Of a stretch of 64,000 nt of DNA, positions 10,209 to 56,026 are shown one piece after another (the stretch's first letter is position 1; each line of letters starts with the position of its first letter). Position numbers and translations under genes: made by a program. The notes below the pieces were generated by a model. It had not been told where the DNA came from. It saw nothing but the letters and a program-made list of their open reading frames with translations, and did not search any database. The stretch comes from Candidatus Zixiibacteriota bacterium (lineage in GTDB: Bacteria > Zixibacteria > MSB-5A5 > GN15 > FEB-12). Location of the stretch: positions 486,926 through 550,925 of the forward strand of contig DAOSXA010000003.1 of assembly GCA_035380245.1 (NCBI GenBank), read 5' to 3'.

Positions 10209-11542
10209 TGTTCTACTCACCCGTAAGAACCAATGCCGCAGAGGTTGCCAAGAGCGACCGGCTTCATCTCTTCAGATATGTCGAAGATCCGGATCAGGTC
10301 AATATCGACACCTACGTCAAGCACGGCGGCTGGGCAATCTGGCCGAAGGTGCTGAAAGAGTGGAGCGCTGAAAACGTTCAACTGGAGGTGAAGAATTCCG
10401 GATTGCGCGGTCGCGGCGGCGCCGGTTTCCCGACCGGAGTCAAATGGGGTTTTCTGCCCAAGGGGCTCAACAAACCGGTTTACCTGTGTTGCAACGCCGA
10501 TGAATCCGAACCCGGAACCTGTAAGGATCGTGTCATACTCGAACGTGACCCGCATGCTGTGATCGAAGGGATGTGCATTGCCGCTTATGCCATTGGCTGC
10601 CATCTCATGTTTATCTATATCCGCGGAGAGTTCGCTCATTGCGCCGATATGATCGAGAAAGCTCTGGGTGAAGCTTACAAGGCCGGGCATCTCGGTAAGA
10701 ACATACACGGTAGTGGTTACGACCTTGACATGATCGTCCATACCGGCGGCGGTGCTTATATCTGTGGTGAGGAAACGGCGCTTCTTAACTCGCTCGAAGG
10801 CGAGCGCGGGATGTCCCGAATAAAACCGCCGTTCCCGGCGGTGGAAGGTCTTTATTCTTGTCCGACCATCATAAACAACGTTGAGTCGTTGACGGCCGTA
10901 ACGCACATCATTCGCAACGGAGCCGCCTGGTACAAGCAGATGGGGACGGAGAAGTCCACGGGCTCGAAGATTTTCTCGCTCAGCGGGCATGTCAACAATC
11001 CCGGGAATTACGAGGTCGAACTCGGCTTTTCGCTCAAGAAGTTAATCTATGACCCGGAATACGGCGGCGGTATTCGAGGCGGCAAGAAGTTGAAGGGGGT
11101 GATCCCGGGCGGATCATCGACACCTTTCCTGACGGCCGAGACATTCGATATCAACCTTGACTATGAATCACTCGCCGCGGCCGGCTCGATGCTCGGTTCC
11201 GGGGCGGTGATTGTATTTAACGAAGACACCTGTATTGTCTGGGTGATCAAAAAGCTGATCCATTTCTATCGTCACGAATCCTGCGGCAAGTGTACGCCTT
11301 GTCGTGAAGGCACCGGCTGGCTCGAACAGATCATCAATCGAATCGAAGCCGGTAAAGGTCAACCGGGTGATGTGGAATTGATCGAAGAAATTTGTGGCAA
11401 TATCCTGGGTCGGACGGTTTGTCCGCTGGGTGATGCGGCGGTAATGCCGGTTCTGTCGGCCATCAAGAACTGGCGCGATGAATGGCAGTACCATATTGAC
11501 AACAAGAAATGCCTGGTGAAGACGGAGTTCCCTTTTAACTAG
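10208..11542 (+). CDS. nuoF: NADH-quinone oxidoreductase subunit F (FMN/NADH-binding)
   Basis: GRGGAGFPTGVKW (FMN/NADH site) and ESCGKCTPCREG (N3 cluster). Confidence 0.95.
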   Translation: MFYSPVRTNAAEVAKSDRLHLFRYVEDPDQVNIDTYVKHGGWAIWPKVLKEWSAENVQLEVKNSGLRGRGGAGFPTGVKWGFLPKGLNKPVYLCCNADESEPGTCKDRVILERDPHAVIEGMCIAAYAIGCHLMFIYIRGEFAHCADMIEKALGEAYKAGHLGKNIHGSGYDLDMIVHTGGGAYICGEETALLNSLEGERGMSRIKPPFPAVEGLYSCPTIINNVESLTAVTHIIRNGAAWYKQMGTEKSTGSKIFSLSGHVNNPGNYEVELGFSLKKLIYDPEYGGGIRGGKKLKGVIPGGSSTPFLTAETFDINLDYESLAAAGSMLGSGAVIVFNEDTCIVWVIKKLIHFYRHESCGKCTPCREGTGWLEQIINRIEAGKGQPGDVELIEEICGNILGRTVCPLGDAAVMPVLSAIKNWRDEWQYHIDNKKCLVKTEFPFN

Positions 11543-11550
11543 ACGAAGCC

Positions 11551-43194: not shown

Positions 43195-43766
43195 TGCGAT
43201 TCGTTTAGATACCTGGTCCGATAATCGGCCAGGGCCTGAATGTGAGCCTCAAAGGCGATTTTATCCGGCAGGGCATCGAACGGGAAGAATCGCACCTCCA
43301 TCGCATCGTCGCCCGCCTTGGCGGTGCCGCCGGCAATGTCGGCCAGAAACAGGATCAAGACGGCATTGGTACGGGGGTCGTCATCGCCGGAGTATACATC
43401 GAATAACTCCGTCAGTTTCACGTCCAGCGAGGTTTCTTCCTTCAATTCCCGGACGGTGCACTCACGCGGCGATTCGGACCATTCCATATAACCGGCGGGC
43501 AGACACCACCAGCCGATGTGCGGGGGATGGGCTCGTTTTACCAGCAGGACACGGTTGTTTTCGACGATAATCGCGCCCGCTGCCGGGATCGGATTCTGAT
43601 AATAAACGAATCCACAGTCTTTATTCGGGCAGGCCATGCGACGGTTGCCGTCCAACTCGCGCTCCACCATCTCGGTACGACAGCGTGGGCACCAGCGATA
43701 ACCCATGTGATTGTCTTTCAGGTCGTTTAGTCGTTCGGGATCGAAATCAGAATGTTGCTCACTCAT
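43191..43766 (-). CDS. NUDIX hydrolase with N-terminal zinc ribbon (NudC-like architecture)
   Basis: CPRC..(17)..CPNKDC zinc ribbon. Nudix box GYMEWSESPRECTVRELKEETSL. It overlaps both neighbours (8 nt and 4 nt). Confidence 0.8.
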   Translation of the reverse strand: MSEQHSDFDPERLNDLKDNHMGYRWCPRCRTEMVERELDGNRRMACPNKDCGFVYYQNPIPAAGAIIVENNRVLLVKRAHPPHIGWWCLPAGYMEWSESPRECTVRELKEETSLDVKLTELFDVYSGDDDPRTNAVLILFLADIAGGTAKAGDDAMEVRFFPFDALPDKIAFEAHIQALADYRTRYLNESQ

Positions 43767-46014
43767 TAGTCTGTTGCTGCCTTTCGATTATCTTCAGCGC
43801 TACCAGGGTAGTATCGTCGCGCGGTGGTGAACTCGGATCGTGTTTGTGGACATCGGCCAGAATCGTCTGAATAAGATCGCCTGGATTCACGCGGCGGTTT
43901 TCCGTTACCATATTGCAGACGCGGTCCTCACCGTATTCTTTCCCGTTGTCATCCATAGCCTCCGACAAACCGTCCGTGAACAGGAACAACAGATCGTCCC
44001 GGTTCAATTGCACCGAGGCCGACTCATAATCCATGAACGGAAATGCCCCGATAATCGGACCACCCGTTGACAGATGTTCTACGTTCCCGTCGGATCGAGC
44101 CAGAATCGGGTAATTATGTCCGGCATTGCAATACCGTAATGTCAAGTTATCGGTGTCCAGTTCACCGTAGAACAGAGTCACATATTTTTCGGCGGACGTA
44201 TTCTCCGCCATTTGCTGATTGATATTTCTAAGCATAGTTGCGATCGGGGTGCCGTTGCGCACTTCACTGCGAATCATCGCCTGGGTCTGGGCGATCATCA
44301 ACGCCGCCGGCATGCCCTTGCCCGAGGCGTCGGCGATTACGATCCCTACTTCATGATCGGATTTCTTAATGAAATCATAAAAGTCTCCTCCAACCGTACG
44401 TGACGGGGTAGAGGTGGCGCTGATTTCCGAGCAGGGCGTACGAGGCGGTTCCGACGGGAGCAGGTCGACCTGGATCTGCCGGGCCATGTTGATCTCTTCC
44501 TGGAGACGCAAACGTTCGAGAGATTCAACGTAGAGCCGGGCGTTGGTCAGGGCGGAAACCATTTGATTGGAAAGCACCCCGAGGAGATTGAAATCCTCCG
44601 AGGAATATCGGTACCCGGCGGCTTTACCGGTCAGGGCGACGAATCCCAGCATGTGGTCGGCATCTTTCAGCGGCAGAATCATACGTACCCCGCGACTCTC
44701 CAGAATGGCTGCGAGTTCGGAGCCTGCGCGGTACTCGGACAACGAATGATAATAAGTGGGTGCTTCGAGCAGATTGATGCCGCGCAACATCAGGTCCTCA
44801 CGGTCGGTGACAATCCTTCTCGGATAACGGTCGCTCGGCAGAATGGTGTATTCCTTGATCTCATCGTCGTACAAATCGAAATAAACCTGATCCACCAGAA
44901 GCGCCGTTTTAAGCGTTTCCTCAATTACCTTTCTCAACTGCTTCGGATCGAAACTAGAAATTACCTGTCGTGAAAATCGTTCGATGACGTTGCGATGGTC
45001 CGTTCGCACGCGCATGAACATCGCCTTGACGCCGTTGTCGATCCAGTTGTTGATCGGCTGGAAAAACAACAGGATCAGGATAATAAAACCGTAACTGACC
45101 ATTTCGGCCTGGTCGCCGAACATGGGCGTCAGGATTCGTTCGGCGCGTACCACGGCCAGGACATACAAACCCACCAGCGCCGCGGAGGTAATGGTCGTTA
45201 CAAAACTTTGTTTGAAGACCATTTGCACGTCGAGGAACTGGTGACGGATCGTGGCAACGACGAGCATCGCCGCACCGAACAGCATGCCGGCTATCAACAG
45301 GCTTGAAGATAGCCCCTGCGAAAGACCGCCCCGGGGGAAAAACGCGGCGATCTGCACTACAACGAACACCAGCATCGAGCCTCGGATTCCCCATTGGACC
45401 CACCTGGTCTGAGTTTGCAGACGCGGATTGGTTACGCGGCGAGCGCTGGTTTCGAGGAAAAAGATCGCTATGAAGACATAGAGGAGGTTGATCGCTCCGA
45501 ACACGATTTCTTCGTATCCGTGAAGGGCTCCGATCAAAAGTCGCAACCATGAGAAGAATCTGGCCAGGGGAGTGACGATTAGCGCCGTCAGGCCGGTTCG
45601 CTCCGGTCCTCCGGAGAAGACATCAAGACCACTCACGATATCCGCGAAAAACAGCACGATGACAACGTGCATGATCTGCGGAAGGAATACCAGCCAGCGC
45701 AGTCGCGATATCCGGCTGCCGGAAGTAACATCGGCCGGGAAGAGCCAGACAAAATAAAGCAGGCTCGGGAAAAACAACTCCCAGAGATGGCGCAGACCGA
45801 AAAGAGTAGAACCTTCGAGATTGCCAGAGAGAGATTGATGACTGATCGCCGCCAAACCCATGAAAATCGGCCCGAGTCCCGCAAAGAACAACATAGCTCC
45901 CGTGGCGCGATTCAACCGGTTGGCGAAATTGTCACGAGTAATCGTAACCGCCAGGAAGACAAGGAATCCGCCCGTCAGAAGGTAGCAGATTGTTTTTGCA
46001 AGCTCGAAACTCAT
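43759..46014 (-). CDS. Polytopic-membrane sensor - GAF - PP2C (SpoIIE/RsbU-type) Ser/Thr phosphatase
   Basis: About 9-10 N-terminal TM helices, a central GAF-like domain, and a C-terminal PP2C domain (GGDFYDF, VIADASGKGMPAAL, FTDGLSEA, DDTTLVALK). Confidence 0.8.
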   Translation of the reverse strand: MSFELAKTICYLLTGGFLVFLAVTITRDNFANRLNRATGAMLFFAGLGPIFMGLAAISHQSLSGNLEGSTLFGLRHLWELFFPSLLYFVWLFPADVTSGSRISRLRWLVFLPQIMHVVIVLFFADIVSGLDVFSGGPERTGLTALIVTPLARFFSWLRLLIGALHGYEEIVFGAINLLYVFIAIFFLETSARRVTNPRLQTQTRWVQWGIRGSMLVFVVVQIAAFFPRGGLSQGLSSSLLIAGMLFGAAMLVVATIRHQFLDVQMVFKQSFVTTITSAALVGLYVLAVVRAERILTPMFGDQAEMVSYGFIILILLFFQPINNWIDNGVKAMFMRVRTDHRNVIERFSRQVISSFDPKQLRKVIEETLKTALLVDQVYFDLYDDEIKEYTILPSDRYPRRIVTDREDLMLRGINLLEAPTYYHSLSEYRAGSELAAILESRGVRMILPLKDADHMLGFVALTGKAAGYRYSSEDFNLLGVLSNQMVSALTNARLYVESLERLRLQEEINMARQIQVDLLPSEPPRTPCSEISATSTPSRTVGGDFYDFIKKSDHEVGIVIADASGKGMPAALMIAQTQAMIRSEVRNGTPIATMLRNINQQMAENTSAEKYVTLFYGELDTDNLTLRYCNAGHNYPILARSDGNVEHLSTGGPIIGAFPFMDYESASVQLNRDDLLFLFTDGLSEAMDDNGKEYGEDRVCNMVTENRRVNPGDLIQTILADVHKHDPSSPPRDDTTLVALKIIERQQQTNE

Positions 46015-46040
46015 GGTTCGTGGCTGCTATAGAATAACGT

Positions 46041-46463
46041 TCAACTCAATTTCTTGGTAATGGTGACTCGCGTTCCCCTGGAAGAAGGATTAACATCGAC
46101 CTTATCCATCAGGGAGCGAACAATGAATATCCCGCGACCGACATCCTTAAGCAGGTTCTCATCACTGATCGGATTAGCGATGCCGTCCGGGTTGAATCCG
46201 CGGCCCTGGTCGCTCACTTCGATCGAGACTTCATCACCCGATTTAACGACTTTAACCGTTACCGAAAGATCCACCGAGAGCTTATTCCCGTGAGTGATGG
46301 CGTTGTTGACCAGCTCGGAAACTGATATGGCGACATCGGCAATGAAGGATTCATCAGCGTTCCAGCCGCGCAACAGGCCCTCTACGAACATATCGACATC
46401 GCTGAGAAACTGGTGGTCGGAAGGGATGACAATCGTGTTTCCCACGATCTTGGGTTTCTGCAT
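46041..46463 (-). CDS. Anti-sigma-factor-type Ser kinase (RsbW/SpoIIAB-like HATPase)
   Basis: N-box ELVNNAITHGN, G1 DQGRGF, G2 GRGIFIVRSL; about 140 aa. The start at 46463 (MQKPKIV...) is preferred. Confidence 0.8.
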   Translation of the reverse strand: MQKPKIVGNTIVIPSDHQFLSDVDMFVEGLLRGWNADESFIADVAISVSELVNNAITHGNKLSVDLSVTVKVVKSGDEVSIEVSDQGRGFNPDGIANPISDENLLKDVGRGIFIVRSLMDKVDVNPSSRGTRVTITKKLS

Positions 46464-46544
46464 TATATGTGCGTCTCCTAACAAAAGCGGCAGGCTGCTC
46501 GCAGCCAACCTGCCTTCATGATCTCAATGAATAATCATCCGCTG

Positions 46545-46883
46545 TTATTGGAACGATTGAACCGCCTCGTCGACCGTTTCATAAGCCTCGAAAACCGACG
46601 CCAGCTTCGTTATTTTGAGCAGCGAACGGATTTTTTCGGTCACACGGGCTAGTTTGAGTTGACCATCGCTGTTGCGCAGTGTCGTGAAACCCTGGATCAA
46701 AATTCCCAGGCCGGTTGAATTCATCCACTCAACACCGGCAAGATCGATGACGACTTTTTTCTTATCTCCCTGGATACACTCATAGAGTTTATCATGAAGC
46801 AGGCTGGCGTCCGGACCACCCATTATCTTACCTTTCGGCTCGAGGATGACCACACTGCCTTCTTCGCGAGCTGTAAGTTTCAT
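46545..46883 (-). CDS. STAS-domain anti-anti-sigma factor (RsbV/SpoIIAA-like)
   Basis: 112 aa. VVIDLAGVEWMNSTGLGILI contains the conserved phosphorylatable Ser context. Confidence 0.85.
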   Translation of the reverse strand: MKLTAREEGSVVILEPKGKIMGGPDASLLHDKLYECIQGDKKKVVIDLAGVEWMNSTGLGILIQGFTTLRNSDGQLKLARVTEKIRSLLKITKLASVFEAYETVDEAVQSFQ

Positions 46884-47110
46884 GAATCCGATTCCTCCGC
46901 CACATGGGCGTTATATATAAAGGACAGTTCTATTACGTTGTTGTTTCAACACTTGTTCCGTCGCTGCCGTCGGAACGAAACCGACGCCAACGGCGGAGAT
47001 ATTCCAAACCAAACTACTAAGTAGCCATTCGCCTCCAACAAGTCAAGGTTTTTGACCGTCCGCCCCTTGTAATTACTTGATTGATAGCTACTTGCCTTGT
47101 GGCAATAGCT

Positions 47111-47143
47111 AAAAAAAGAGGCGACCAGGATGATCGCCTCTTT
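47111..47143 (-). terminator. Rho-independent terminator of the OFOR/Nuo-like operon
   Basis: The minus strand reads AGAGGCGA-TCATCCTGG-TCGCCTCT followed by T7, 28 nt after the stop at 47171. Confidence 0.8.
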
Positions 47144-47170
47144 ACCGTGTATTCTCAAAGACGTTCGTTA

Positions 47171-47608
47171 TTAGACGGCCGTCTTATGCTTACGAGCTTT
47201 AATCGGCCGGAAGCTGAGTGCTTTAGTCGGGCAGAAATGAGCACAGACCGGATCGCCGCCGCAAAGGTCGCATTTTACGATCATGTCGTGCTGTGTATCG
47301 TGAAGCGAAGCGCCGAACGGACAAGCCGCTACGCAAGCGCCGCACTTGACGCATTTCTCCTGATTCAACTCGATGGCCCCGGTCTCCTCGTTGAGAGTGA
47401 GGGCTTCGACCAGGCAACTCTTAACGCAGGCCGGATCGTCACAATGCAGACAAACAACCGGTGTAAACAGGTCCGGTTTGCCTGCCGGCAGGGGATAGAT
47501 ACGGCTGCGGCCGGGTTTACCGTTGATCGAATGAGCGAAGGCACAGGCCATTTCACAGGTGCGGCAGCCGGTGCACAGGTCCGGTACTACTACCAGGCGA
47601 GATTTCAT
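47171..47608 (-). CDS. Polyferredoxin ([4Fe-4S] multi-cluster, HycB/DmsB-like)
   Basis: CTGCRTCEMAC, CLHCDDPACVKSC, CVKCGACVAACP, CDLCGGDPVCAHFCP: four cluster motifs in ~145 aa. ATGA overlap with the upstream gene. The start at 47608 is preferred. Confidence 0.8.
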   Translation of the reverse strand: MKSRLVVVPDLCTGCRTCEMACAFAHSINGKPGRSRIYPLPAGKPDLFTPVVCLHCDDPACVKSCLVEALTLNEETGAIELNQEKCVKCGACVAACPFGASLHDTQHDMIVKCDLCGGDPVCAHFCPTKALSFRPIKARKHKTAV

Positions 47609-48381
47609 GACTGCTCCTCCCGTGCCCAGCCGACCACCGCTCCCATCGTCAAGGAAAGCTCCTTGCGGTGACAGGCATCGCACTTCTCGAAGTATTCCAT
47701 CGGTATGCCGCGACGCTCGCTCAGAGCCTCGGCAAACTCACGTGTTATCGTGGTTGCGCCGCACTCTTTGCAGGTGAGCAGCTCGAACGTTTTGCCCCAG
47801 ATGGTCCGTTTGCCGTTGACGTCGGTGAATTTAATCACATGAGTCGGGCAGTTGAGCGCACAGCTAAGGCACCCGACACAATCCGGGGGGGCTTCCTTCA
47901 TCGGTGGGGCGACTTCTTTGGTATGGCCGCGACCGACGGTAGAAATGGCGTTGAACCCCAACCGCGAACAGATTCTGGTGCACAAACCACAGAGAATGCA
48001 ATTGTCGCCGTTGACCACCGGTTCGTAGCTGGTTTCATTGACGCCGTACTGAGCGGCCATTTCTCTAATTTCCGGCGAGCCGGGGCATCGAGCCAGCAGC
48101 AGATCGATCAAGGTTTTACGCAGCTCGATCACTTTAGCCGAATGCGTATGGACAATGAGGTCCTGCTCGACCGGGTACAGGCAGGAAGTAACGTAGTTCT
48201 TCCAACCGTTCCAGGACTCTTTGGTGATCTCGACCGTGCAAAGCCTGCAGGCTCCGAACGGTTCGACCGCCTCATGATGGCAAAGGGCGGGGATGTCTAT
48301 CCCCATGCGGCGAATTACCGCCAGAAGCATCTCACCTTCTTCGGCCTGGACCACTCTTCCGTTTATAGTCAGACTTACCAT
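47605..48381 (-). CDS. [2Fe-2S]/[4Fe-4S] protein resembling the N-terminal third of NuoG/HydA, with no catalytic domain
   Basis: The N-terminal LTINGRVVQAEEGEMLL..ALCHHEAVEPFGACRLCTVE is a plant-type 2Fe-2S as in NuoG/HydA. CILCGLCTRIC and CVGCLSCALNCP are present. At only 258 aa it has no H-cluster or molybdopterin domain. Confidence 0.7.
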   Translation of the reverse strand: MVSLTINGRVVQAEEGEMLLAVIRRMGIDIPALCHHEAVEPFGACRLCTVEITKESWNGWKNYVTSCLYPVEQDLIVHTHSAKVIELRKTLIDLLLARCPGSPEIREMAAQYGVNETSYEPVVNGDNCILCGLCTRICSRLGFNAISTVGRGHTKEVAPPMKEAPPDCVGCLSCALNCPTHVIKFTDVNGKRTIWGKTFELLTCKECGATTITREFAEALSERRGIPMEYFEKCDACHRKELSLTMGAVVGWAREEQS

Positions 48382-48391
48382 TCAGTATCTC

Positions 48392-50248
48392 CTAAACAAC
48401 CTCGATGGCATTGTGCTGACAGACGGCGTAGCAGGCGCCGCATTTGTCACACTTGTCCTGATTGATGAAATGAGGTTCCTTTTTCTTACCGGTGATCGCT
48501 TCATGGGCGCAGGCAGAAATACAGGCCATGCAGCCGTTACAGATCTCCGGATCGATTTTATAGGTAATAAGCGCCCGACAAACACCGGCCGGACACCGCT
48601 TGTCGCGGATGTGCGCCAGGTATTCATCGCGGAAATAACGAATTGTCGACAGGAACGGATTCGGGCCGGATTTCCCCAGTCCGCAAAGCGAACCGATCAC
48701 GATATTTTCCGAGAGTTTCTCCATTTTGTCGAGATCTTCCTCGGTCGCGCGGCCTTCGCTCACCGCTACCGCCAGGGCGTGCAACTGGTACAAACCTTCG
48801 CGGCAGGGGACACACTTACCGCAGGATTCATCGATGAGGAATTGGAGGAAGTATTTCGCGACATCGACCACGCAGGTGCGGTCGTCCATCACGATCATTC
48901 CGCCGGAGCCCATCATCGAACCAGCCTGAGTCAGGGTGTCGAAATCGACCGACAAATCGAGTTTCTCTTCCGGCAAACAACCGCCCGAGGGGCCGCCGGT
49001 CTGGACCGCTTTGAACGGCCGGTCTTTGATTACACCACCACCGATATCGTAGATGATCTGTTTCAGGGTGGTGCCCATCGGCACTTCGATCAACCCGGTG
49101 TTGCGCACCTTGCCGACGAGTGAGAAAGCCTTGGTTCCGGTAGATTTGGCCGTACCGATCGAGGAGAACCACTTGCCGCCTTTGGCGATGATCACCGGGA
49201 CGTTGGCATAGCTCTCGACATTGTTCAGCACGGTCGGTTTGTCGAACAAACCCTTTTGAACCGAACGGATATATTTGGCTCGCGGTTCGCCGACCTCACC
49301 CGCCACCGACAGCATGAGAGCCGAAGACTCGCCGCAAACGAAAGCACCGCCGCCGCGACTGACATGGATGTCGAAATCGAAGCCGGTTCCAAGAATGTTT
49401 TCTCCCAGCAGTCCCAGGGCCTGCGCTTGTTCGATAGCTTTCTGCAGGTTGACAACCGCCAGGGGATACTCCTCGCGGACGTAAATGTACCCGTTGTGGG
49501 AGCCGACCGCCCAGGCGGCGATAATCATCCCTTCGATCACCGAATGCGGATCGCCTTCCATAATGGCGCGATCCATGAACGCGCCGGGGTCGCCCTCGTC
49601 GCCGTTGCAGATCACGTAACGGGGTTCATCGTCGATCTTCGCGCAAGTAGCCCACTTGCGTCCGGTCGGGAAACCGCCGCCGCCGCGACCACGCAGACCG
49701 GAGGCGATAACCTCGTCGATCACTTCCTGCGGTTTCATCTTCGAAAGCGCCTTCGCCATCGCTTCGTAACCGCCGATGGCGATGTACTCGTCGATGTCGC
49801 ACTGGCGAATCTTGCCGATGTTCCGCAGGGCGATCCGGTTCTGCAGTTTGTAGAACGGGATTTCTTTGTAGTCGGTGTAGGTCTTGCCGTCGGCGGCATT
49901 GGTATAGAGCAACCGCTCGACAATCTCTTTCTTTTTAATCGAGGTTTCTATGATCTCCTCGACATCCCTGACTTTCACTTTCGTGTAGAACACGCCGTCC
50001 GGTTCGATAATAACCAACGGTCCCTGCTCGCAGAAACCATGACAACCGGTTTCCTTGAGAGCCTCGACCGAGAATCCCTTGATCTTTTTATCCTTGATGA
50101 CCTTATGGAATTCGTCGCTGATCTTCTTAGCGCCGTTGGCCAGACATCCCGGACCGCAGCATATCAGCACCGTTCGAGGGTGCTTGTTCATCCTCTCCAG
50201 ATTTGTCTTCCGGAGATCCTTAAGCTGACTAATGGTCTCGATTCGCAT
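48392..50248 (-). CDS. NuoF-like NAD(H)/FMN subunit of HydB/HndC architecture
   Basis: N-terminal thioredoxin-like 2Fe-2S (CCGPGC..CHGFCEQGP), RGRGGGGFPTGRKW, ESCGKCVPCREG, and C-terminal 2x[4Fe-4S] (CNGCMACISAC, CDKCGACYAVC). Confidence 0.85.
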   Translation of the reverse strand: MRIETISQLKDLRKTNLERMNKHPRTVLICCGPGCLANGAKKISDEFHKVIKDKKIKGFSVEALKETGCHGFCEQGPLVIIEPDGVFYTKVKVRDVEEIIETSIKKKEIVERLLYTNAADGKTYTDYKEIPFYKLQNRIALRNIGKIRQCDIDEYIAIGGYEAMAKALSKMKPQEVIDEVIASGLRGRGGGGFPTGRKWATCAKIDDEPRYVICNGDEGDPGAFMDRAIMEGDPHSVIEGMIIAAWAVGSHNGYIYVREEYPLAVVNLQKAIEQAQALGLLGENILGTGFDFDIHVSRGGGAFVCGESSALMLSVAGEVGEPRAKYIRSVQKGLFDKPTVLNNVESYANVPVIIAKGGKWFSSIGTAKSTGTKAFSLVGKVRNTGLIEVPMGTTLKQIIYDIGGGVIKDRPFKAVQTGGPSGGCLPEEKLDLSVDFDTLTQAGSMMGSGGMIVMDDRTCVVDVAKYFLQFLIDESCGKCVPCREGLYQLHALAVAVSEGRATEEDLDKMEKLSENIVIGSLCGLGKSGPNPFLSTIRYFRDEYLAHIRDKRCPAGVCRALITYKIDPEICNGCMACISACAHEAITGKKKEPHFINQDKCDKCGACYAVCQHNAIEVV

Positions 50249-50249
50249 A

Positions 50250-50714
50250 TCAGTCCTTCTTGTTTGTCTTGACCAGTCGCTTGACGTTTGCGACGGTCAC
50301 GCCGCCGTGGAACTCATCGTTGACCGCCACCACCGGAGCCATGGCGCAGGCGCCGACGCATGCGACCACCTCGATCGAGAATTTCCCGTCTTCGGTGGTC
50401 TCTCCAGCTTTGATCTTGAGCAGATTCTCAAGTTGTTGCTGAATTTGCTTGGAGCCGCGAATATGGCAGGTGGTGCCGACGCATATGCGAATAACCTTCT
50501 CACCTTTAGGATTCAGGCTAAAGGCGTTATAGAAGGTAGAAACCGAGAATACCTTCGAAAGCGGAACACCCAGACGTTTGGCTGTCTCCTCGAGCGCGTG
50601 GCAGGGGAGAAAATTGTACTCCTTCTGGATATCCTGCAGAACGGCTATTAATGATTCCGGAGCACTCGGGTAGCGGTCAAAAATCTCCGGAAGTTTAGAG
50701 AAATCGTGTTTCAT
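50250..50714 (-). CDS. NuoE-like thioredoxin-type [2Fe-2S] subunit (HydC/HndA-like)
   Basis: CVGTTCHIRG ... ACVGACAMAPVV cysteine pattern; 154 aa. ATGA overlap with the OFOR gamma gene. Confidence 0.85.
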   Translation of the reverse strand: MKHDFSKLPEIFDRYPSAPESLIAVLQDIQKEYNFLPCHALEETAKRLGVPLSKVFSVSTFYNAFSLNPKGEKVIRICVGTTCHIRGSKQIQQQLENLLKIKAGETTEDGKFSIEVVACVGACAMAPVVAVNDEFHGGVTVANVKRLVKTNKKD

Positions 50715-51274
50715 GCCTTTACCTTCCGACCGAGAACTTCCCGGGACAGTTTGTATCCCTCTTCGAGAGCTTTCATGTTGACCGGCAGGGCTTCTTTCTT
50801 TTTGCCCAGCTTCAACTTGATCGTATCCTTGATGGTGTCGTATCCGACCACCTCAGTGGCGCCGATAAACGCACCCAGTACGGCGATATTGGCCGCTTTG
50901 GGATTACCGATTTTCATGGCGATATCGTTGGCCGGAACGAGCAGTTCGGTAATATCGTCACGATCGGTGGTAACGTCGATCAGGGAGCTGTTGACGATCG
51001 AAAGACCCTGCGGTTTGATCCTCGGGACAAACTTATCGAATGAGGGACGATTGAACACCACCGCACAACGGGGGTTGCTGATGATCGGCGAACCGATCCG
51101 GGTGTCTGAAATAACCACCATGCAATAGGCGGTGCCGCCACGCATCTCCGGGCCGTACGAGGGAATCCAGGCTACCTGTTTTCCTTCGGCGATACCGGCG
51201 TAAGCCAGCAATTGTCCGGCGGTCATGATGCCCTGGCCGCCGAAACCGGCAAAGAGAACTTCATACTGTTTCAT
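50711..51274 (-). CDS. 2-oxoacid:ferredoxin oxidoreductase, gamma subunit
   Basis: The N-terminus MKQYEVLFAGFGGQGIMTAGQLLA is typical of OFOR gamma; about 187 aa. The start at 51274 is preferred. Confidence 0.85.
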   Translation of the reverse strand: MKQYEVLFAGFGGQGIMTAGQLLAYAGIAEGKQVAWIPSYGPEMRGGTAYCMVVISDTRIGSPIISNPRCAVVFNRPSFDKFVPRIKPQGLSIVNSSLIDVTTDRDDITELLVPANDIAMKIGNPKAANIAVLGAFIGATEVVGYDTIKDTIKLKLGKKKEALPVNMKALEEGYKLSREVLGRKVKA

Positions 51275-52038
51275 TGGCCGCCTCCATCCTCGACGTAGTC
51301 CTTGTAACAACCCAGCGGATAGTAGGCGAGCATGTTGTTCTTAAGCCATTCCTGTGCCGCGCTCGGGGTCAATCCCCAGTTGGTCGGACATGTCGAGAGG
51401 ACTTCGACCAGGGTGAAGCACTTCCCGGCTTTTTGCAGTGTAAAAGCCTTCTTGATGGCTCGTTTGGCTTGAACGATATGTTTGGGATCGTGTACCGATA
51501 CCCGCTCGATGTAGGCGGGGGTTTGGAGCGACGACAACAATTCCGACATGCGAATCGGCCATCCCACCAGGGCGTTGTTACGTCCGAACGGACAGGTCGT
51601 GGTAACCTGACCGCTCAGCGTGGTCGGAGCCATCTGTCCTCCGGTCATGCCGTAAATAGCGTTATTGACGAAGATCGTAGTGAACTTCTCCCCGCGATTG
51701 GCGGCGTGAACGATTTCGCCCATACCGATCGAGGCCAGATCGCCGTCGCCCTGATAGGTGAAAACGATCATGTCCGGTCGGATGCGTTTGAACCCGGTCG
51801 CCAGTGCCGGAGCGCGGCCGTGCGGGGCTTCCAGGAAATCGGTTTTGAGATAATTGTAGCAGAGCACCGAGCAGCCCACCGGGGCGACACCGCAGGTATT
51901 TTCTCGTTCGCCGATTTCATCGATAGCTTCGGCCACCAGACGATGAATCACACCGTGGGTACAACCGGGGCAGTAGTGGGTGACATTGTCATACATTGCC
52001 TCGGGCCGATCGAACAGTATTGTATTATCTGTTTTCAT
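51271..52038 (-). CDS. 2-oxoacid:ferredoxin oxidoreductase, beta (TPP-binding) subunit
   Basis: CPGCTHG cysteines. TPP motif GDGDLASIGMGEIVHAANRGEKFTTIFVNNAIYGMTGGQ. The start at 52038 (MKTDNTILF...) is preferred over the Arg-rich extension to 52191. Confidence 0.9.
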   Translation of the reverse strand: MKTDNTILFDRPEAMYDNVTHYCPGCTHGVIHRLVAEAIDEIGERENTCGVAPVGCSVLCYNYLKTDFLEAPHGRAPALATGFKRIRPDMIVFTYQGDGDLASIGMGEIVHAANRGEKFTTIFVNNAIYGMTGGQMAPTTLSGQVTTTCPFGRNNALVGWPIRMSELLSSLQTPAYIERVSVHDPKHIVQAKRAIKKAFTLQKAGKCFTLVEVLSTCPTNWGLTPSAAQEWLKNNMLAYYPLGCYKDYVEDGGGQ

Positions 52039-52045
52039 ATCAACC

Positions 52046-53143
52046 TCAGGCTTTCTTCTTTCGGGTCGTCGTTTTCTTCGTGCCGACGATCTGATGAATC
52101 TGTTCTTTGACCTCTTCCGGTGAAGGAACGATACCGCCGGTGCGGCCGTAGAAATGAACTTTCTTCTTGCCGACCACCGACCGGACCACATCCTCGTACA
52201 TCTGCGCCGTGCTCATCTCGACCACCAGCGCGGCCTTGATGTTTTTCTTGGCGACTTCGTTGTATATCTGTTCCTCACAAAGGGGGAAGAGGGTGATGGG
52301 ACGAAGCAACCCGACGGAAATTCCTTCGTCGGCCAGTTCATCGATAGCGGTCTGGCAAATACGGGCCATTGTCCCGTAGGAAATGATCAGCACCTGGTTT
52401 TTGTCCGAGACACGGTATTTTTCGAATCTGATTTCTTCTCGGGCCATTTGCCGGTACTTGTCCTGAAGCATCCAGCTATTTTTCTCCAGGCCGACCGGGT
52501 CGAGGAAGAGCGATTTGATAATTCTCGGATTACGTCCGGCACAACCGGTCGCGGCCCATTCGTCCGTTGAGGGCAACTCCGGTTCGGTGTAATTCTCGGG
52601 GAATTCTACCGCTTCCATCATCTGGCCGATCATACCGTCGCCGATCATCATGACCGGATTGCGGTATTTATCCGCCAGATGGAAGGACAACATCATCAGG
52701 TCGACCGCTTCCTGAATCGATGACGGCGCCAGGACGAGCACACGATAATCACCGTGTCCGCCGCCCTTGACCGCCTGATTGTAGTCAGACTGAGCCGGGA
52801 GGATACCGCCCAGGCCGGGACCGCCGCGCATGATGTTGACGATCACGACCGGGAGAGATGCTCCCGCCATGTAAGAGATTGCCTCCTGCATCAGGCTGAT
52901 GCCCGGGCTGGAGGAAGTAGTGAAACAGCGTTTGCCGGTCGACGCAGCGCCGAAAAGCATGTTGGCCACGGCCAACTCGCTTTCGCCCTGCAGAAACACG
53001 CCGCCGACCTCGGGCATCCGCCGCGCCAGGTATTCCGCTACCTCCGTCTGAGGCGTAATCGGATAGCAGAAGTAGTTGGTCGCGCCGGCCCGGATGGCAG
53101 CCTCGGCAATCGCTTCGTTTCCTTTCATAAGTATTTTTGCCAT
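52046..53143 (-). CDS. 2-oxoacid:ferredoxin oxidoreductase, alpha subunit
   Basis: The N-terminus MAKILMKGNEAIAEAAIRAGATNYFCYPITPQTE is typical of OFOR alpha; about 365 aa. The start at 53143 is preferred. Confidence 0.9.
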   Translation of the reverse strand: MAKILMKGNEAIAEAAIRAGATNYFCYPITPQTEVAEYLARRMPEVGGVFLQGESELAVANMLFGAASTGKRCFTTSSSPGISLMQEAISYMAGASLPVVIVNIMRGGPGLGGILPAQSDYNQAVKGGGHGDYRVLVLAPSSIQEAVDLMMLSFHLADKYRNPVMMIGDGMIGQMMEAVEFPENYTEPELPSTDEWAATGCAGRNPRIIKSLFLDPVGLEKNSWMLQDKYRQMAREEIRFEKYRVSDKNQVLIISYGTMARICQTAIDELADEGISVGLLRPITLFPLCEEQIYNEVAKKNIKAALVVEMSTAQMYEDVVRSVVGKKKVHFYGRTGGIVPSPEEVKEQIHQIVGTKKTTTRKKKA

Positions 53144-53168
53144 ATCTTCAATCCCTGTTCCGTACCGG

Positions 53169-53402
53169 CTAGTACTCGTAGAGTTCGTAAACCAGGCCGT
53201 TGCTGTGCACCGTGATTGCCACATCGGGGCAGGTCAGGGCGCAGATACGACAGCCGATGCATCGCGATGGATCATGAACTTTGGCGTAAAAGTAACCCCG
53301 CACCGTTATCTCTTTGGACATCGAGATAATTTTCTGAGGGCAGGCTTTTACGCATAACTCACAACCTTTGCAATGGTTCTTGTCTATGGTTATTCCCGGC
53401 AT
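53169..53402 (-). CDS. 2-oxoacid:ferredoxin oxidoreductase, delta (2x[4Fe-4S] ferredoxin) subunit
   Basis: CKGCELCVKACP and CIGCRICALTCP; about 77 aa. The ATG at 53402 follows GAGGTG (6 nt). Confidence 0.85.
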   Translation of the reverse strand: MPGITIDKNHCKGCELCVKACPQKIISMSKEITVRGYFYAKVHDPSRCIGCRICALTCPDVAITVHSNGLVYELYEY

Positions 53403-53425
53403 TAACGGCACCTCTATCTATTTAG

Positions 53426-54160
53426 CTAAGTGCTGTTCCGTGTGGATTGCTCCCAAGGCTTGAGCAGTTGGCGCTCAAGCGGCAGAACAGCCGTGTCAAA
53501 AGCTTCAGTGTTTATTTTCTTAAGTACATTTGCCAAAGCAGCAATAAAACTAACCTCGACTCCGGCCTCACGGGCGACTTCGATCGAGAGGCGATATCCG
53601 CGTTCAATCATTTCGGCGTCGGTCTGTTCGAGCAGATGAGTGTTTGAAATAATCCCGGTGAAACGGAGTTTGGAGGAGGCTTCAATTTTGGCGATCATTT
53701 GCAGGGAAGAACGAAGGTCGGATGTGAACGGGCGGTTGGCGTTAAGCACCAGCAGCATCTCATAACTGCCGGGAGTGAAAGCATCGTTCAGCGAACTGAG
53801 AACGCGTGCTCCGACATCGTCACCACCCACATCCAGAATGAGGTAGCCTTCGTGTTTTTGTATCGATCCCTTTACTTCCGGAAGAATAATCGGCAGTTCC
53901 GAGTGAAACTGCTCACCGGTCGGATTGATCGAACGAACTCCCAGCGCCTCTAATTGTTTGGTGGCTTCTCGGGATCGGAAGTAGGGATTTACAATATCAA
54001 GATCGGCGATGGCTACCGGCTTCGATTGACTGCGAGCCAGGAAAGCAGCCAGATTCACCGAGACTTCCGATTTACCGCTGCCGTAACCGCCGACAATGAT
54101 CAGAATCGGCCGTGTGAATGCGGGCATACGATATTTGCGGTTGGTACGGTCCGATGACAT
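53426..54160 (-). CDS. P-loop NTPase of unknown function, first gene of the OFOR operon
   Basis: Walker A GGYGSGKSE, Walker-B-like YLILDVGGDD; 244 aa with a MinD/CooC-like layout. No closer assignment possible by eye. Confidence 0.45.
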   Translation of the reverse strand: MSSDRTNRKYRMPAFTRPILIIVGGYGSGKSEVSVNLAAFLARSQSKPVAIADLDIVNPYFRSREATKQLEALGVRSINPTGEQFHSELPIILPEVKGSIQKHEGYLILDVGGDDVGARVLSSLNDAFTPGSYEMLLVLNANRPFTSDLRSSLQMIAKIEASSKLRFTGIISNTHLLEQTDAEMIERGYRLSIEVAREAGVEVSFIAALANVLKKINTEAFDTAVLPLERQLLKPWEQSTRNST

Positions 54161-54263
54161 CTGTGCTTGCTCCCGACTCCTATTACAAACGGTATCAACG
54201 GATTAGGATACCGTAATGTGGAGTGTTCCGGTCTGTAAAATCCTACAAAACCAGTCCTGTTAG

Positions 54264-54292
54264 AATATCGTAACCGCGTACCCTGAAGTCAA
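54264..54292 (-). promoter_or_regulatory. Candidate promoter of the P-loop/OFOR/Nuo-like operon
   Basis: The minus strand reads TTGACT (54292-54287), 17-nt spacer, GATATT (54269-54264). Confidence 0.4.
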
Positions 54293-54327
54293 GTATCTAT
54301 GTGAAAATAATAACGTTTATATTCGGT

Positions 54328-54356
54328 TTGACGGCTCCTGTTCGATTGACTATATT
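54328..54356 (+). promoter_or_regulatory. Candidate divergent promoter for the lipoprotein / citryl-CoA-lyase-like genes
   Basis: TTGACG (54328-54333), 17-nt spacer, TATATT (54351-54356), 19 nt before the ATG at 54375. Confidence 0.45.
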
Positions 54357-54374
54357 GTGACCCGATATTGATTT

Positions 54375-55238
54375 ATGGCGATCAAACGACGGGACTGTGA
54401 TAGTTCCGCAAACCTATGTTGGGTATTTTTGCTAAATCGTAGAATCCTGATTATCGCTCTGTTTTGCCTCCTATCGTTGATGGTGTTGGTATTTGCCGGT
54501 TGCTCCGGTTCGAATAACGCCGGCGAGGGGGTTGAAAACAACAAATACGACGGCTGGAAAACCGCTTCTTATGAGAATGTCAAGGTGATCTATCCGCCCG
54601 GTCATCTTCATGCCGACAAGATGCAGGAGTACGCTCGTTTGTATCGTCGGCAGGTTGAAATGGACTGCCAGGTGCTGACATTGCCGATACCGGCCGAGAC
54701 GCTGGTGGTTTATCATTACACCGGATTCGGTCAGGGGCGAGAGATGACCGGACATGAATATCCATACGCAGAGGATACGGTTATTCACTTCTGGCTACCG
54801 AGCTATCGCGGCACCACCGTCATGCAGTACGTTCTGCAGCATTGGATCAACAAGGAACCGCAGTACAAATTTCTCAAACATGGTCTATTGGCCATGCTTG
54901 ATGCTTCCGGTCAGAACTACCATCAGATGACCTGGGACCTCTATCAGAAAGGGGAACTGGAGTCTTTGGCGGAACTGGCCGTTGATTCCACGGTCGACTC
55001 GAATCTGGAACGCAAACAGACTGCTGAGGGAGCCTCGTTTGTTGACTTTATGCTCGTTCAATATGGACCCAAGGGGCTTGGTTTGCTCTATCGCGCCGAA
55101 TCGCCGATCGAGATAGTCGTGCCCGGTGTCCTGGAGATCGAACTTGACAGCCTTCAAACCAACTGGCTCAACTTTGTCAAAAAAGTCGTGAGCGGGCAAT
55201 ATCAGCTCCCAAGTTCCGATTCGACCGATGGTAACTAA
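54375..55238 (+). CDS. Hypothetical lipoprotein
   Basis: Signal peptide with lipobox (LSLMVLVFAGCSG). No recognisable catalytic motif. An alternative TTG start at 54429 gives a more canonical signal peptide. Confidence 0.5.
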   Translation: MAIKRRDCDSSANLCWVFLLNRRILIIALFCLLSLMVLVFAGCSGSNNAGEGVENNKYDGWKTASYENVKVIYPPGHLHADKMQEYARLYRRQVEMDCQVLTLPIPAETLVVYHYTGFGQGREMTGHEYPYAEDTVIHFWLPSYRGTTVMQYVLQHWINKEPQYKFLKHGLLAMLDASGQNYHQMTWDLYQKGELESLAELAVDSTVDSNLERKQTAEGASFVDFMLVQYGPKGLGLLYRAESPIEIVVPGVLEIELDSLQTNWLNFVKKVVSGQYQLPSSDSTDGN

Positions 55239-55261
55239 CCTTATTTTCGGGAACGTAAGCA

Positions 55262-56026
55262 ATGGCTGACGAGAAATGGAAGACCGGGATAACCGATATC
55301 GGACCCGGCAAGATCCGCGTCAAGGGCTACTCCATAACCGATATCATGGAGCATTTGTCCTACGCCGAAGCTGTTTATTTGATTCTAAAGGGTGAACGTC
55401 CGTCCGAGGCCGAGGCGGCTCTTATGAATGCGATTCTGGTGGCCTCGATCGATCATGGGGCGTCACCGCCGTCGGTGCTGGGCACGCGCACGGTGATGTC
55501 CGGCGGCAATTCACTCAACGCGGCGATTGCCGGGGGCGTACTCGTCATCGGCGATACTCATGGCGGAGCGATCGAACAGTCGGCCCGCATTATGCAGGAA
55601 TGGGCCGCCAAAGAAGGCGATCCAACCGCTTTAGCCGGACAGATTGTCGACTGGCTCAAAGAAAGCAAGCGACGCATGCCCGGTTTCGGTCATCGTCTGC
55701 ACAAGGTCGACCCGCGTACCGGGAAGCTGTTCGAGATTGCCGAGCGTTATGGTTATCACGGCCGTCATATTGATCTCTGCAAAGCAATCGAAAAAGCTCT
55801 CGCTGAGAAAACGGGGAAAGAACTCCCGATCAATGTCGACGGTGCTATCGCTGCGGTTATTTCCGATATGGGCTTTGACTGGCGACTGGGCAAGGGATTT
55901 TTCATTATCTCACGAGTACCCGGTTTACTGGCGCATGCCTATGAAGAAATGACCCGCGAGAAGCCGATGCGCAAACTCGGGCCGTTACCGTACGAATACG
56001 ATGGTCCCGGCGAACGCGAGTTATAG
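55262..56026 (+). CDS. Citrate-synthase-family small protein, citryl-CoA-lyase-like
   Basis: At 254 aa it is too short for citrate synthase. It carries the family catalytic motif GFGHRLHKVDPR plus DHGASPPS and GLLAHAYEE. The size and motifs match stand-alone citryl-CoA lyase or the C-terminal domain of ATP-citrate lyase. Confidence 0.6.
   Translation: MADEKWKTGITDIGPGKIRVKGYSITDIMEHLSYAEAVYLILKGERPSEAEAALMNAILVASIDHGASPPSVLGTRTVMSGGNSLNAAIAGGVLVIGDTHGGAIEQSARIMQEWAAKEGDPTALAGQIVDWLKESKRRMPGFGHRLHKVDPRTGKLFEIAERYGYHGRHIDLCKAIEKALAEKTGKELPINVDGAIAAVISDMGFDWRLGKGFFIISRVPGLLAHAYEEMTREKPMRKLGPLPYEYDGPGEREL

Follow-up and report, generated by a model that had tools for sequence, protein, structure and literature searches.

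Nine genes on the minus strand of a 64,000-nucleotide stretch of DNA from a Candidatus Zixiibacteriota bacterium (assembly GCA_035380245.1, contig DAOSXA010000003.1, positions 486,926 to 550,925; hereafter the window) encode the four subunits of a 2-oxoacid:ferredoxin oxidoreductase (OFOR), the proteins BfuA, BfuB, and BfuC of the bifurcating flavoenzyme family, a WorS-like polyferredoxin, and a P-loop NTPase. We propose, with a probability of about 0.6, that the products constitute a multi-subunit bifurcating 2-oxoacid:NAD+/ferredoxin oxidoreductase, an OFOR-Bfu enzyme of the "Por-Bfu" class. Gene content, cofactor motifs, operon structure, synteny, and the relationship of BfuA to WorA and of the polyferredoxin to WorS were observed directly, and together they carry the proposal. 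The central idea, coupling of an OFOR to BfuABC, is already published as a prediction: the BfuABC family was defined by Schut et al. in 2022, with Por-Bfu (A-G) among its predicted members (PMC9304861). An earlier sequence-only reading of the window had arrived at the same kind of complex, and coupling of 2-oxoacid conversion to NAD(H) and ferredoxin is indeed the best-supported reading, given the bifurcating features of BfuB and the WorS-like connector that adjoins BfuA. Its premise that, among known enzymes, the NuoEF-like pair is confined to hydrogenases, formate dehydrogenases (FDHs), and Nfn-type enzymes is out of date, and the implied novelty falls away with the 2022 proposal of the same mechanism and of a role in pyruvate synthesis (PMC9304861).

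Gene Composition and Boundaries of the Operon

Genes were called from a scan for open reading frames (ORFs) in the 44-58-kb region of the window combined with Pfam and NCBIfam profile searches. The resulting set, which is identical to the JGI gene calls on the source, a 720-kb metagenome contig (JGI 3300010350), is listed below with its flanking signals, from high to low coordinates.

54264-54292, minus strand, candidate sigma-70-like promoter (TTGACT-17-GATATT, 9 of 12 positions; a consensus match only)
53426-54160, minus strand, P-loop NTPase, 244 amino acids (aa), weakly of CbiA/MinD type (Pfam CbiA match, E = 5e-6)
53169-53411, minus strand, OFOR delta, 2x[4Fe-4S] ferredoxin (Fer4 domains; 8 Cys, two CxxCxxCxxxC motifs)
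52046-53143, minus strand, OFOR alpha, 365 aa (POR_N and PFOR_II)
51271-52038, minus strand, OFOR beta, 255 aa, thiamine pyrophosphate (TPP) and [4Fe-4S] site (TPP_enzyme_C)
50711-51274, minus strand, OFOR gamma, 187 aa (Pfam POR, E = 7e-38)
50250-50714, minus strand, BfuC (NuoE/HydC-like), [2Fe-2S] cluster C1 (2Fe-2S_thioredx over the full length, E = 1e-47)
48392-50248, minus strand, BfuB (HydB/NuoF-like), 618 aa, with flavin mononucleotide (FMN)/NAD(H) site, B1, Zn/B2 site, B3/B4, and B5 (Pfam domains)
47605-48381, minus strand, BfuA type 2 (WorA-like), 258 aa (profile match; Fer2_4 and 2x[4Fe-4S])
47171-47608, minus strand, S subunit, WorS-like polyferredoxin, 145 aa, 16 Cys (4x[4Fe-4S])
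47115-47143, minus strand, intrinsic terminator (13-bp stem with 6 GC pairs, 3-nt loop, TTTTTTT run)

Three junctions are exact ATGA overlaps (51271-51274, 50711-50714, and 47605-47608), which leave OFOR gamma overlapping a neighbor at both ends and the polyferredoxin start overlapping the BfuA stop codon; the remaining junctions measure ≤25 nt. The nine tightly packed genes and three overlaps described previously were thus recovered by the ORF scan and profiles, and the profile matches agree with the subunit anatomy given at that time (OFOR delta, alpha, beta, and gamma, a NuoE-like protein, a 618-aa NuoF-like protein, and a polyferredoxin). The promoter candidate is situated in a 214-nt divergent intergenic region 5' of the P-loop gene, and the terminator, 28 nt past the stop codon of the polyferredoxin gene, is the sole strong one within 46500-54600. 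Judged from the short gaps, the overlaps, this terminator, and the synteny of 49 OFOR-linked loci described below, the nine genes are likely to form one transcription unit bounded by a promoter-like site and a strong terminator, as had been supposed.

No catalytic gene for a hydrogenase, FDH, aldehyde oxidoreductase, or carbon monoxide dehydrogenase (CODH) was found by Pfam in the operon or in ten further large ORFs of the window, which upholds the view that the OFOR is the only catalytic partner in the operon. The Bfu genes are also dedicated paralogs of a genuine respiratory set, as claimed: canonical NuoD/E/F/G are encoded at 8563-14109 (NuoEFG at ∼9.7-14.1 kb), where NuoF and NuoG exceed the NCBIfam cut-offs, whereas BfuB scores 467.6 on the NuoF model TIGR01959, under the equivalog cut-off of 558.65.

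Cofactor Sites of BfuB and BfuC

Inspection of the BfuB polypeptide with Pfam reveals a 2Fe-2S_thioredx domain at residues 24-102, Complex1_51K (FMN/NAD(H)), NADH_4Fe-4S, and two Fer4 domains at 564-616. The protein aligns end to end with solved bifurcating chains, namely HydB of T. kivui (8a6t_B, E = 6e-233) and WorB and NiFe-HydB of Acetomicrobium mobile (9mqx_B, E = 1e-229, and 7t2r_B, E = 1e-220, respectively), and it is ∼55-56% identical to the T. kivui and A. mobile HydB proteins. In the alignment with solved HydB and WorB, the ligands of the B1 [4Fe-4S] cluster are Cys476/479/482/522. The B2/Zn site is made up of Cys459, His546, Cys552, and Cys557, which correspond to C438, H525, C531, and C536 of A. 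mobile NiFe-BfuB; the counterpart of C476 of the latter protein is Ser in the window BfuB and Thr in the Zn-binding T. kivui HydB and in WorB. The motifs of the N-terminal [2Fe-2S] cluster (B5) and the C-terminal 2x[4Fe-4S] domain (B3 and B4) are complete, and in BfuC the C1 [2Fe-2S] ligands are Cys78/83/119/123.

Sites B2-B5 are absent from non-bifurcating BfuB homologues (Schut 2022, PMC9304861), and the C-terminal 2x[4Fe-4S] domain of BfuB is the proposed ferredoxin-binding site. Judged by its residues, the window BfuB has the complete set of features that mark off bifurcating homologues from non-bifurcating ones. All of the cofactor sites by which BfuB and BfuC of the Bfu family are recognized are present, and coupled reduction of NAD+ and ferredoxin is predicted on that basis.

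Public annotation obscures the system, in that BfuB homologues are named NuoF, SLBB-domain protein, or 4Fe-4S-binding protein. NCBI models the window BfuB as a 599-aa protein that starts 19 codons later and is named by domain only. The length of 618 aa is preferred here because homologues have 617-619 aa and the corresponding start lies 1 nt after the BfuC stop.

Relationship of BfuA and the Polyferredoxin to WorA and WorS

The 258-aa BfuA protein had been equated with just the N terminus of NuoG/HydA, and this assignment has to be revised. Its best solved relative is WorA (9mqx_A, E = 1e-45, residues 17-242), and like WorA it is without the His-ligated [4Fe-4S] cluster; no HxxxCxxC motif is present in the alignment with WorA, where the window protein reads LLLARCPGS, and no NADH-G_4Fe-4S_3 domain was detected by Pfam. 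The predicted complement is accordingly [2Fe-2S] cluster A1 and [4Fe-4S] clusters A2 and A4, with A3 (the His-ligated cluster) and A5 absent. On the NuoG model TIGR01973 the protein scores 67, the cut-off being 470. Residues Cys204/207/234/237 align with the zinc finger of WorA and form a four-Cys zinc-finger-like motif, and the 16 residues past the last Cys pair make up a tail that is conserved in Zixibacteria as ELsxxMGxIxxWxRE. Two further groups of loci that possess an S subunit, the second OFOR group and the CODH-linked group (see below), have conserved BfuA tails of their own. An AlphaFold2 (AF2) model of BfuA calculated without an alignment had a mean predicted local distance difference test (pLDDT) score of 35 and was unusable.

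In several zixibacterial loci (L011, L023, L025, L029-L032, and L036), the second zinc-finger Cys pair of BfuA has been lost and the C-terminal tail kept.

The best solved relative of the polyferredoxin is WorS (9mqx_E, E = 3e-27), and its best NCBIfam match is the N-terminal polyferredoxin domain of PadI (profile positions 9-136, E = 2e-26). Positions 224-367 of the same PadI profile match the window OFOR beta (E = 1.5e-10). PadI thus fuses a polyferredoxin of this type to OFOR beta within an NAD+-reducing OFOR, consistent with the polyferredoxin being a conduit out of the OFOR, and by analogy it is presumed to be the wire between the OFOR and BfuA. The tail that follows CPTKAL in zixibacterial polyferredoxins is ∼12-15 residues long, basic, and poorly conserved; the polyferredoxins of the second OFOR group carry a longer tail with an LPWAMxMP motif. 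In WorABCSL, a hydrophobic helix at the C terminus of WorS links successive S subunits, giving a nanowire (PMC12318220). Given the short basic tail here, an (SL)3 nanowire would not be expected.

OFOR Subunits and Possible Substrates

OFOR alpha scores 504 bits against a cut-off of 399 on the NCBIfam model of the PRK07119 "VorB" subfamily, followed by the generic 2-oxoacid and OorA models, with the PorA and archaeal VorA models far lower. Its closest solved chains are the P. furiosus 2-ketoacid OFOR (1yd7) and two 2-oxoglutarate:ferredoxin oxidoreductases (OGORs; 8ys5 and 6n2n), pyruvate:ferredoxin oxidoreductases being remote. The closest solved chain to OFOR beta, whose translation contains CPGC and further Cys residues together with a GDGD...NN motif, is likewise an OGOR beta (8ys5_C). 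Taken as a pair, alpha and beta have their highest scores on the PRK07119, generic 2-oxoacid, and Oor/Kor models, the Por models being much lower. OFOR gamma exceeds the cut-off of TIGR02175 (PorC_KorC), and the best NCBIfam matches of OFOR delta, OorD and OGOR_delta, are both under cut-off. These affinities suggest a Kor/Oor/"VorB"-like rather than a Por-like enzyme, for which the label "Por" would be generic. Candidate substrates are 2-oxoglutarate and branched-chain 2-oxoacids, or the enzyme may accept 2-oxoacids broadly. The accessory genes of the second OFOR-Bfu group offered no clue to substrate, consisting of scattered insertions and one weak AMP-binding match.

Conservation of the OFOR-Bfu Locus

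The closest homologues of the window proteins are labeled Zixibacteria, Zixiibacteriota, or GN15. A comparative set of 80 loci was fetched with BfuB, using one genome per GTDB species, and the nine proteins were mapped onto them by tblastn. The OFOR-linked BfuB clade accounts for 49 of the 80 loci, drawn from Zixibacteria, Gemmatimonadota, Calditrichota-labeled genomes, and unclassified metagenome-assembled genomes (MAGs), and gene order is the same in 49 of 49 as far as the contigs reach. In loci with ≥67% identity (∼35, from Zixibacteria or mislabeled MAGs), the order P-loop, delta, alpha, beta, gamma, C, B, A, polyferredoxin is complete to the extent that the contig allows. Another 13 loci with 56-60% identity, which include a Gemmatimonadota MAG, a Calditrichota-labeled MAG, and unclassified MAGs, form a second group that has the same set but with small ORFs inserted. 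Identity between the two groups is 54-61% for alpha, 66-73% for beta, 56-60% for BfuB, 45-54% for BfuA, 42-55% for the polyferredoxin, and 41-47% for the P-loop protein. The comparable divergence of all parts is consistent with inheritance as a block. At 55-80% identity, BfuB keeps its bifurcation features throughout the 49 OFOR-linked loci.

A neighbor-joining tree was built from 81 BfuB sequences with the NuoF of the window as root; with 100 bootstraps, it resolved the following clades.

CODH-linked BfuB, 18 loci, bootstrap 100
Hdr-linked BfuB, 11 loci, bootstrap 100
Zixibacteria BfuB, 36 loci, bootstrap 100
All OFOR-linked BfuB with two partner-switched exceptions (L081 and L069), 49 + 2 loci, bootstrap 81

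The NuoF-like subunit, the placement of which bears on the sequence-only reading, therefore belongs to an OFOR-linked clade (81/100). When three solved proteins were added, all 80 loci grouped with A. mobile WorB (98/100) to the exclusion of A. mobile NiFe-HydB and T. kivui HydB. This grouping, obtained from a tree without a published Por-Bfu BfuB, would fit clade 45 of Schut et al., the clade (or clades 35/44) of Wor-, Bam-, and Mbh-linked BfuB. The CODH-linked clade is sister to A. mobile WorB. Pfam analysis of neighboring genes showed that loci of Planctomycetota, Spirochaetota, and related MAGs encode CooC, a CooF-like polyferredoxin, BfuCBA, CooS, and AcsB in a single cluster, and that loci of Desulfobacterota have MvhD/HdrA-like genes beside the Bfu module. 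No hydrogenase or FDH catalytic gene was found adjoining the module in the sister-clade loci by the same analysis. A secondary rearrangement away from such a gene, which the earlier reading had allowed for, is rejected on the partners of close relatives, which are OFOR, CODH/acetyl-CoA synthase (ACS), or MvhD/Hdr-like, and the outcome favors that reading. On these comparisons the OFOR partnership is old and lineage-defining.

Several individual loci deserve mention. L081 (9446-13767) and L069 are nested in the OFOR-linked clade yet are without an OFOR, and L081 contains a BfuC-BfuB fusion of 792 aa and a 648-aa protein in which BfuA is fused to an MvhD-like domain; the two look like cases of partner switching. 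In the second OFOR group, the subunit genes are separated by ∼120-130-aa ORFs with similar N termini (L048, 6089-6475; L052, 4170-4556, 7430-7798, and 12935-13294), and one 470-aa ORF gives the weak AMP-binding match (L048, 7326-8738). In a Zixiibacteriota chromosome (CP070777; L028, 8864-8964), nothing of the OFOR upstream of gamma is recorded past a masked stretch of 100 N, which is probably a gap in the stored data and not a real loss. The CODH/ACS-Bfu loci are L056, L061-L066, L068, L070, L071, L073-L076, L079, L083, and L084 (e.g. L071, 6025-16945); Codh-Bfu was recorded by Schut et al. only in Firmicutes (clade 49) and without ACS (PMC9304861).

The P-loop Protein and Neighboring Genes

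The AF2 model of the P-loop protein, calculated from an alignment of 44 homologues, had a pLDDT of 87.7. A Foldseek search of the PDB with this model returned only generic SIMIBI folds (signal recognition particle GTPases and MinD/Mrp-like proteins; template modeling score ∼0.5) and no specific family. Family members share two motifs, a GxxGSGKS Walker A and a DxGGD; the window protein contains no Cys, and none is conserved among the 44 homologues. A role as a metal or cluster carrier of the CooC, Mrp, or HypB type is unlikely, because the family has no conserved Cys. The gene occupies the same position in most OFOR-linked loci, and its product probably has an accessory part in assembly or regulation rather than a redox function. 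It is publicly named "cobalamin biosynthesis protein CbiA," probably after the Pfam name.

Beyond the terminator, at 43759-46883 on the minus strand, are genes for a STAS anti-sigma antagonist, an RsbW-like kinase, and a 751-aa membrane SpoIIE phosphatase, a trio that follows the operon in at least 20 Zixibacteria loci. SpoIIE-family genes also occur within CODH/ACS-Bfu clusters of Planctomycetota and Spirochaetota (L071, 8052-9416; L056, 5323-6474), and the STAS/RsbW/SpoIIE set may be a recurrent partner-switching regulator of Bfu operons.

Divergently upstream, at 54375-56026 on the plus strand, a lipoprotein-like ORF without a family match is followed by a 254-aa citryl-CoA-lyase-like gene (55262-56026). 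Both keep this location in Zixibacteria and are not found there in the other OFOR-Bfu lineages. The sequence-only reading had remarked on this gene, 1.1 kb from the operon, and the assignment stands at 305 bits against a cut-off of 212. Its relevance to the operon is weak: it is on the opposite strand, its position as a neighbor is kept in Zixibacteria but not in other OFOR-Bfu lineages, and no citryl-CoA synthetase or ATP-citrate lyase was seen near it. It therefore carries little weight here.

Proposed Electron Path and Energetics

The proposed reaction would begin with decarboxylation of the substrate at the TPP site of OFOR alpha/beta. Electrons would pass from there to the beta [4Fe-4S] cluster and the two delta clusters, then through S1-S4 of the polyferredoxin to A4, A2, and A1 of BfuA, and finally from A1 into the FMN/iron-sulfur core of BfuBC, where they would be split to NAD+ and ferredoxin. 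We infer this path by analogy with WorABCSL, in which cluster S4 of WorS is 10.7 Å from A4 of WorA and the A4-A2-A1 chain leads to BfuBC (9MQX, PMC12318220). Two 2-oxoacid oxidations would yield one NADH together with two reduced ferredoxins, with obligate coupling of the two products. In the oxidative direction, half of the electrons would thus go straight to NADH, and this NADH could be used by complex I, for which the window also has genes.

In this organism, oxidation is more likely than the reverse reaction. With potentials of -500 mV for pyruvate, -280 mV for physiological NAD, and -500 mV for ferredoxin (Schut 2022, PMC9304861), oxidation is downhill to both acceptors. For carboxylation, we calculate a mean donor potential of ∼-390 mV; compared with ferredoxin as the only donor, this costs ∼21 kJ per electron pair and so favors oxidation. 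The rationale of reductive carboxylation offered by the sequence-only reading is weakened for the same reason, since NADH as co-donor is what raises the mean potential. The genome of Zixibacterium RBG-1 was reported to be without Rnf and H2-evolving hydrogenases for ferredoxin reoxidation, and the organism was judged non-autotrophic.

Why low-potential donors should use a bifurcating module is a puzzle stated by Schut et al., and Wor-Bfu, despite its low-potential donor, needs both NAD+ and ferredoxin for the reduction of either (PMC9304861). It is conceivable but doubtful that the 2-oxoacid acts as a middle donor, such that coupling to NAD+ charges ferredoxin far below -500 mV or imposes a strict 1:1 gate on NADH and ferredoxin. 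Were this the case, the complex would supply reductant of unusual strength, or would act as a gate between pools, and so be more than an OFOR that produces NADH; it would be a machine in its own right, widespread in Zixibacteria, Gemmatimonadota, and related uncultured lineages.

Evaluation of Alternative Explanations

The cofactor content of BfuB bears most directly on the possibility that the enzyme is an NAD+-dependent, non-bifurcating OFOR in which all electrons go to NAD+ via BfuABC and free ferredoxin is uninvolved, making it a functional analogue of the 2-oxoacid dehydrogenase complex or of phenylglyoxylate:NAD+ oxidoreductase. Reduction of NAD+ by a 2-oxoacid is exergonic without coupling at the potentials given above, PadEFGHI provides a precedent for an NAD+-reducing OFOR with an S-like domain in its beta subunit, and non-bifurcating NuoEF-like modules exist, for example in the hydrogenases of S. 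wolfei and S. aciditrophicus. The window BfuB nevertheless keeps the N-terminal [2Fe-2S] site, the Zn/His site, and the C-terminal 2x[4Fe-4S] domain, all absent from characterized non-bifurcating homologues, and their retention in every OFOR-linked locus compared makes this explanation unlikely. Synteny and phylogeny weigh in turn on whether the operon instead encodes two co-transcribed but separate enzymes, a ferredoxin-dependent OFOR and a free-standing BfuABC-S that exchanges electrons between ferredoxin and NAD(H) or has its partner elsewhere. Schut et al. raised the same caveat for Codh-Bfu clusters (PMC9304861), the OFOR has its own delta ferredoxin as do free-standing four-subunit OFORs, and the OFOR and Bfu blocks are contiguous, not interleaved. 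We regard such a division as improbable, given that BfuA and polyferredoxins are known only as feeders of electrons from a third substrate, that the OFOR-linked BfuB proteins form their own clade with the block inherited whole across phyla and its parts similarly diverged, that no other candidate catalytic partner is present in the operon or the large ORFs of the window, and that PadI physically joins this type of polyferredoxin to an OFOR beta.

A third explanation retains the complex but runs it in reverse, as a 2-oxoacid synthase that draws on NADH and reduced ferredoxin for anabolism or a variant of the reductive tricarboxylic acid cycle. OFORs are reversible, the gene scoring as citryl-CoA lyase is conserved at its position in Zixibacteria, and pyruvate synthesis is a published suggestion for Por-Bfu (PMC9304861). 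Set against this are the unfavorable mean donor potential (∼+21 kJ per two electrons, the couple being at about -500 mV), the location of the lyase-like gene on the other strand and its absence from OFOR-Bfu loci outside Zixibacteria, the failure to find citryl-CoA synthetase or ATP-citrate lyase nearby, and the non-autotrophic character ascribed to RBG-1. A synthase role is consequently the most doubtful of these readings.

Several observations also weigh against the bifurcating OFOR-Bfu complex that we favor. The 2-oxoacid couple, at ∼-500 mV, is not a mid-potential donor, and bifurcation lacks a clear thermodynamic reason. Complex formation, including contacts of OFOR delta/beta with S and of S with BfuA, is suggested by gene order and by analogy. 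The polyferredoxin is without the longer hydrophobic C-terminal helix of WorS, with the result that its docking may differ. The P-loop gene is missing from three loci of the second group (L054, L058, and L064) and would thus be dispensable for coupling. The BfuB trees are neighbor-joining trees only, and in the literature searched no purified Por-Bfu enzyme is reported.

If the complex exists as proposed, many uncultured bacteria of sediment and groundwater would oxidize 2-oxoacids with an oxygen-sensitive, ferredoxin-type enzyme that delivers half of the electrons as NADH, and models of the redox balance and energy yield of such bacteria would change. The system bears on the question of why low-potential donors use a bifurcating module, and the variant with a WorS-like connector would allow the "plug and wire" architecture of WorABCSL to be tested a second time, on a TPP-based enzyme.

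Comparison with Known Systems

Por-Bfu, the class to which the locus is assigned, consists of four pyruvate-oxidoreductase subunits with BfuABC of type 2 and occurs in syntrophic Proteobacteria and in Dehalococcoides mccartyi, whose strain 195 expresses the genes together. It was hypothesized to couple pyruvate to NAD(H) and ferredoxin, and pyruvate synthesis was suggested as its role in Dehalococcoides (PMC9304861). The window shares with it a single cluster of four OFOR subunits and BfuA, BfuB, and BfuC, a BfuA without A3 and A5, a BfuB with the full bifurcating cofactor set, and the same proposed coupling of 2-oxoacids to NAD(H) and ferredoxin, both systems being known from genes and not from biochemistry. 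The WorA homologue of Por-Bfu is described as having the zinc finger but not the C-terminal helix, which may explain the missing WorS homologue (Feng 2025, PMC12318220). By contrast, the window encodes a WorS-like polyferredoxin and a BfuA with a conserved tail, and it is set apart as a Por-Bfu variant on these grounds, the Por-Bfu side of the comparison being the Feng 2025 description only. It also differs in the P-loop NTPase gene that heads the operon, in its hosts (Zixibacteria and allies), and in an OFOR that by profile and PDB matches is Kor/Oor/"VorB"-like rather than Por-like. A 104-aa machine-read fragment of D. mccartyi BfuB (PMC9304861 supplement) used as a query gave only short fragments of ≤72% identity.

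The closest or near-closest solved homologues of BfuC, BfuB, BfuA, and the polyferredoxin all belong to WorABCSL, the electron-bifurcating tungsten aldehyde oxidoreductase of A. mobile (9MQX, PMC12318220), in which the polyferredoxin wires the catalytic subunit to BfuA and a C-terminal element of WorA recruits WorS. Both systems have a BfuA with a four-Cys zinc finger and no His-ligated cluster, and a polyferredoxin with four [4Fe-4S] motifs. They differ in the catalytic partner, which is a TPP-dependent OFOR alpha/beta/gamma/delta in the window and the tungstopterin subunit WorL in A. mobile; no WorL-type subunit was found in the operon or the large ORFs of the window. Further differences in the window are the shorter, basic tail of the polyferredoxin and the additional P-loop gene.

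The NADH-dependent phenylglyoxylate dehydrogenase PadEFGHI (NCBIfam NF045762/64/66) is likewise an NAD+-reducing OFOR with an S-like polyferredoxin domain, in PadI. The NAD-reducing module of that enzyme is the Pad flavoprotein. In the window, the NAD module is NuoEF/HydBC-like, the polyferredoxin is a separate protein, and the scores of all subunits are far below the equivalog cut-offs (PadG, 74 versus 700; PadI, 40 and 93 versus 700; PadE, 63 versus 300).

The HydABC and HydABCSL [FeFe]- and [NiFe]-hydrogenases (8A6T, 7P5H, and 7T2R) have the same BfuBC core, with the cofactor ligands all conserved, but the window has no H-cluster or NiFe subunit and its BfuA is reduced to a 258-aa connector. 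NuoEFG of complex I is homologous to BfuBC in fold and in the FMN/NADH site, and BfuB is distinguished from NuoF by its extra N- and C-terminal cluster domains, its score under the NuoF cut-off, and the presence of the nuo operon elsewhere in the window. Taken together, these comparisons indicate that the locus is a variant of a known, never-purified class. Its departures from the published description are a connector of the WorS type, a tail on BfuA, an accessory P-loop protein, and an OFOR that is not of the Por type.

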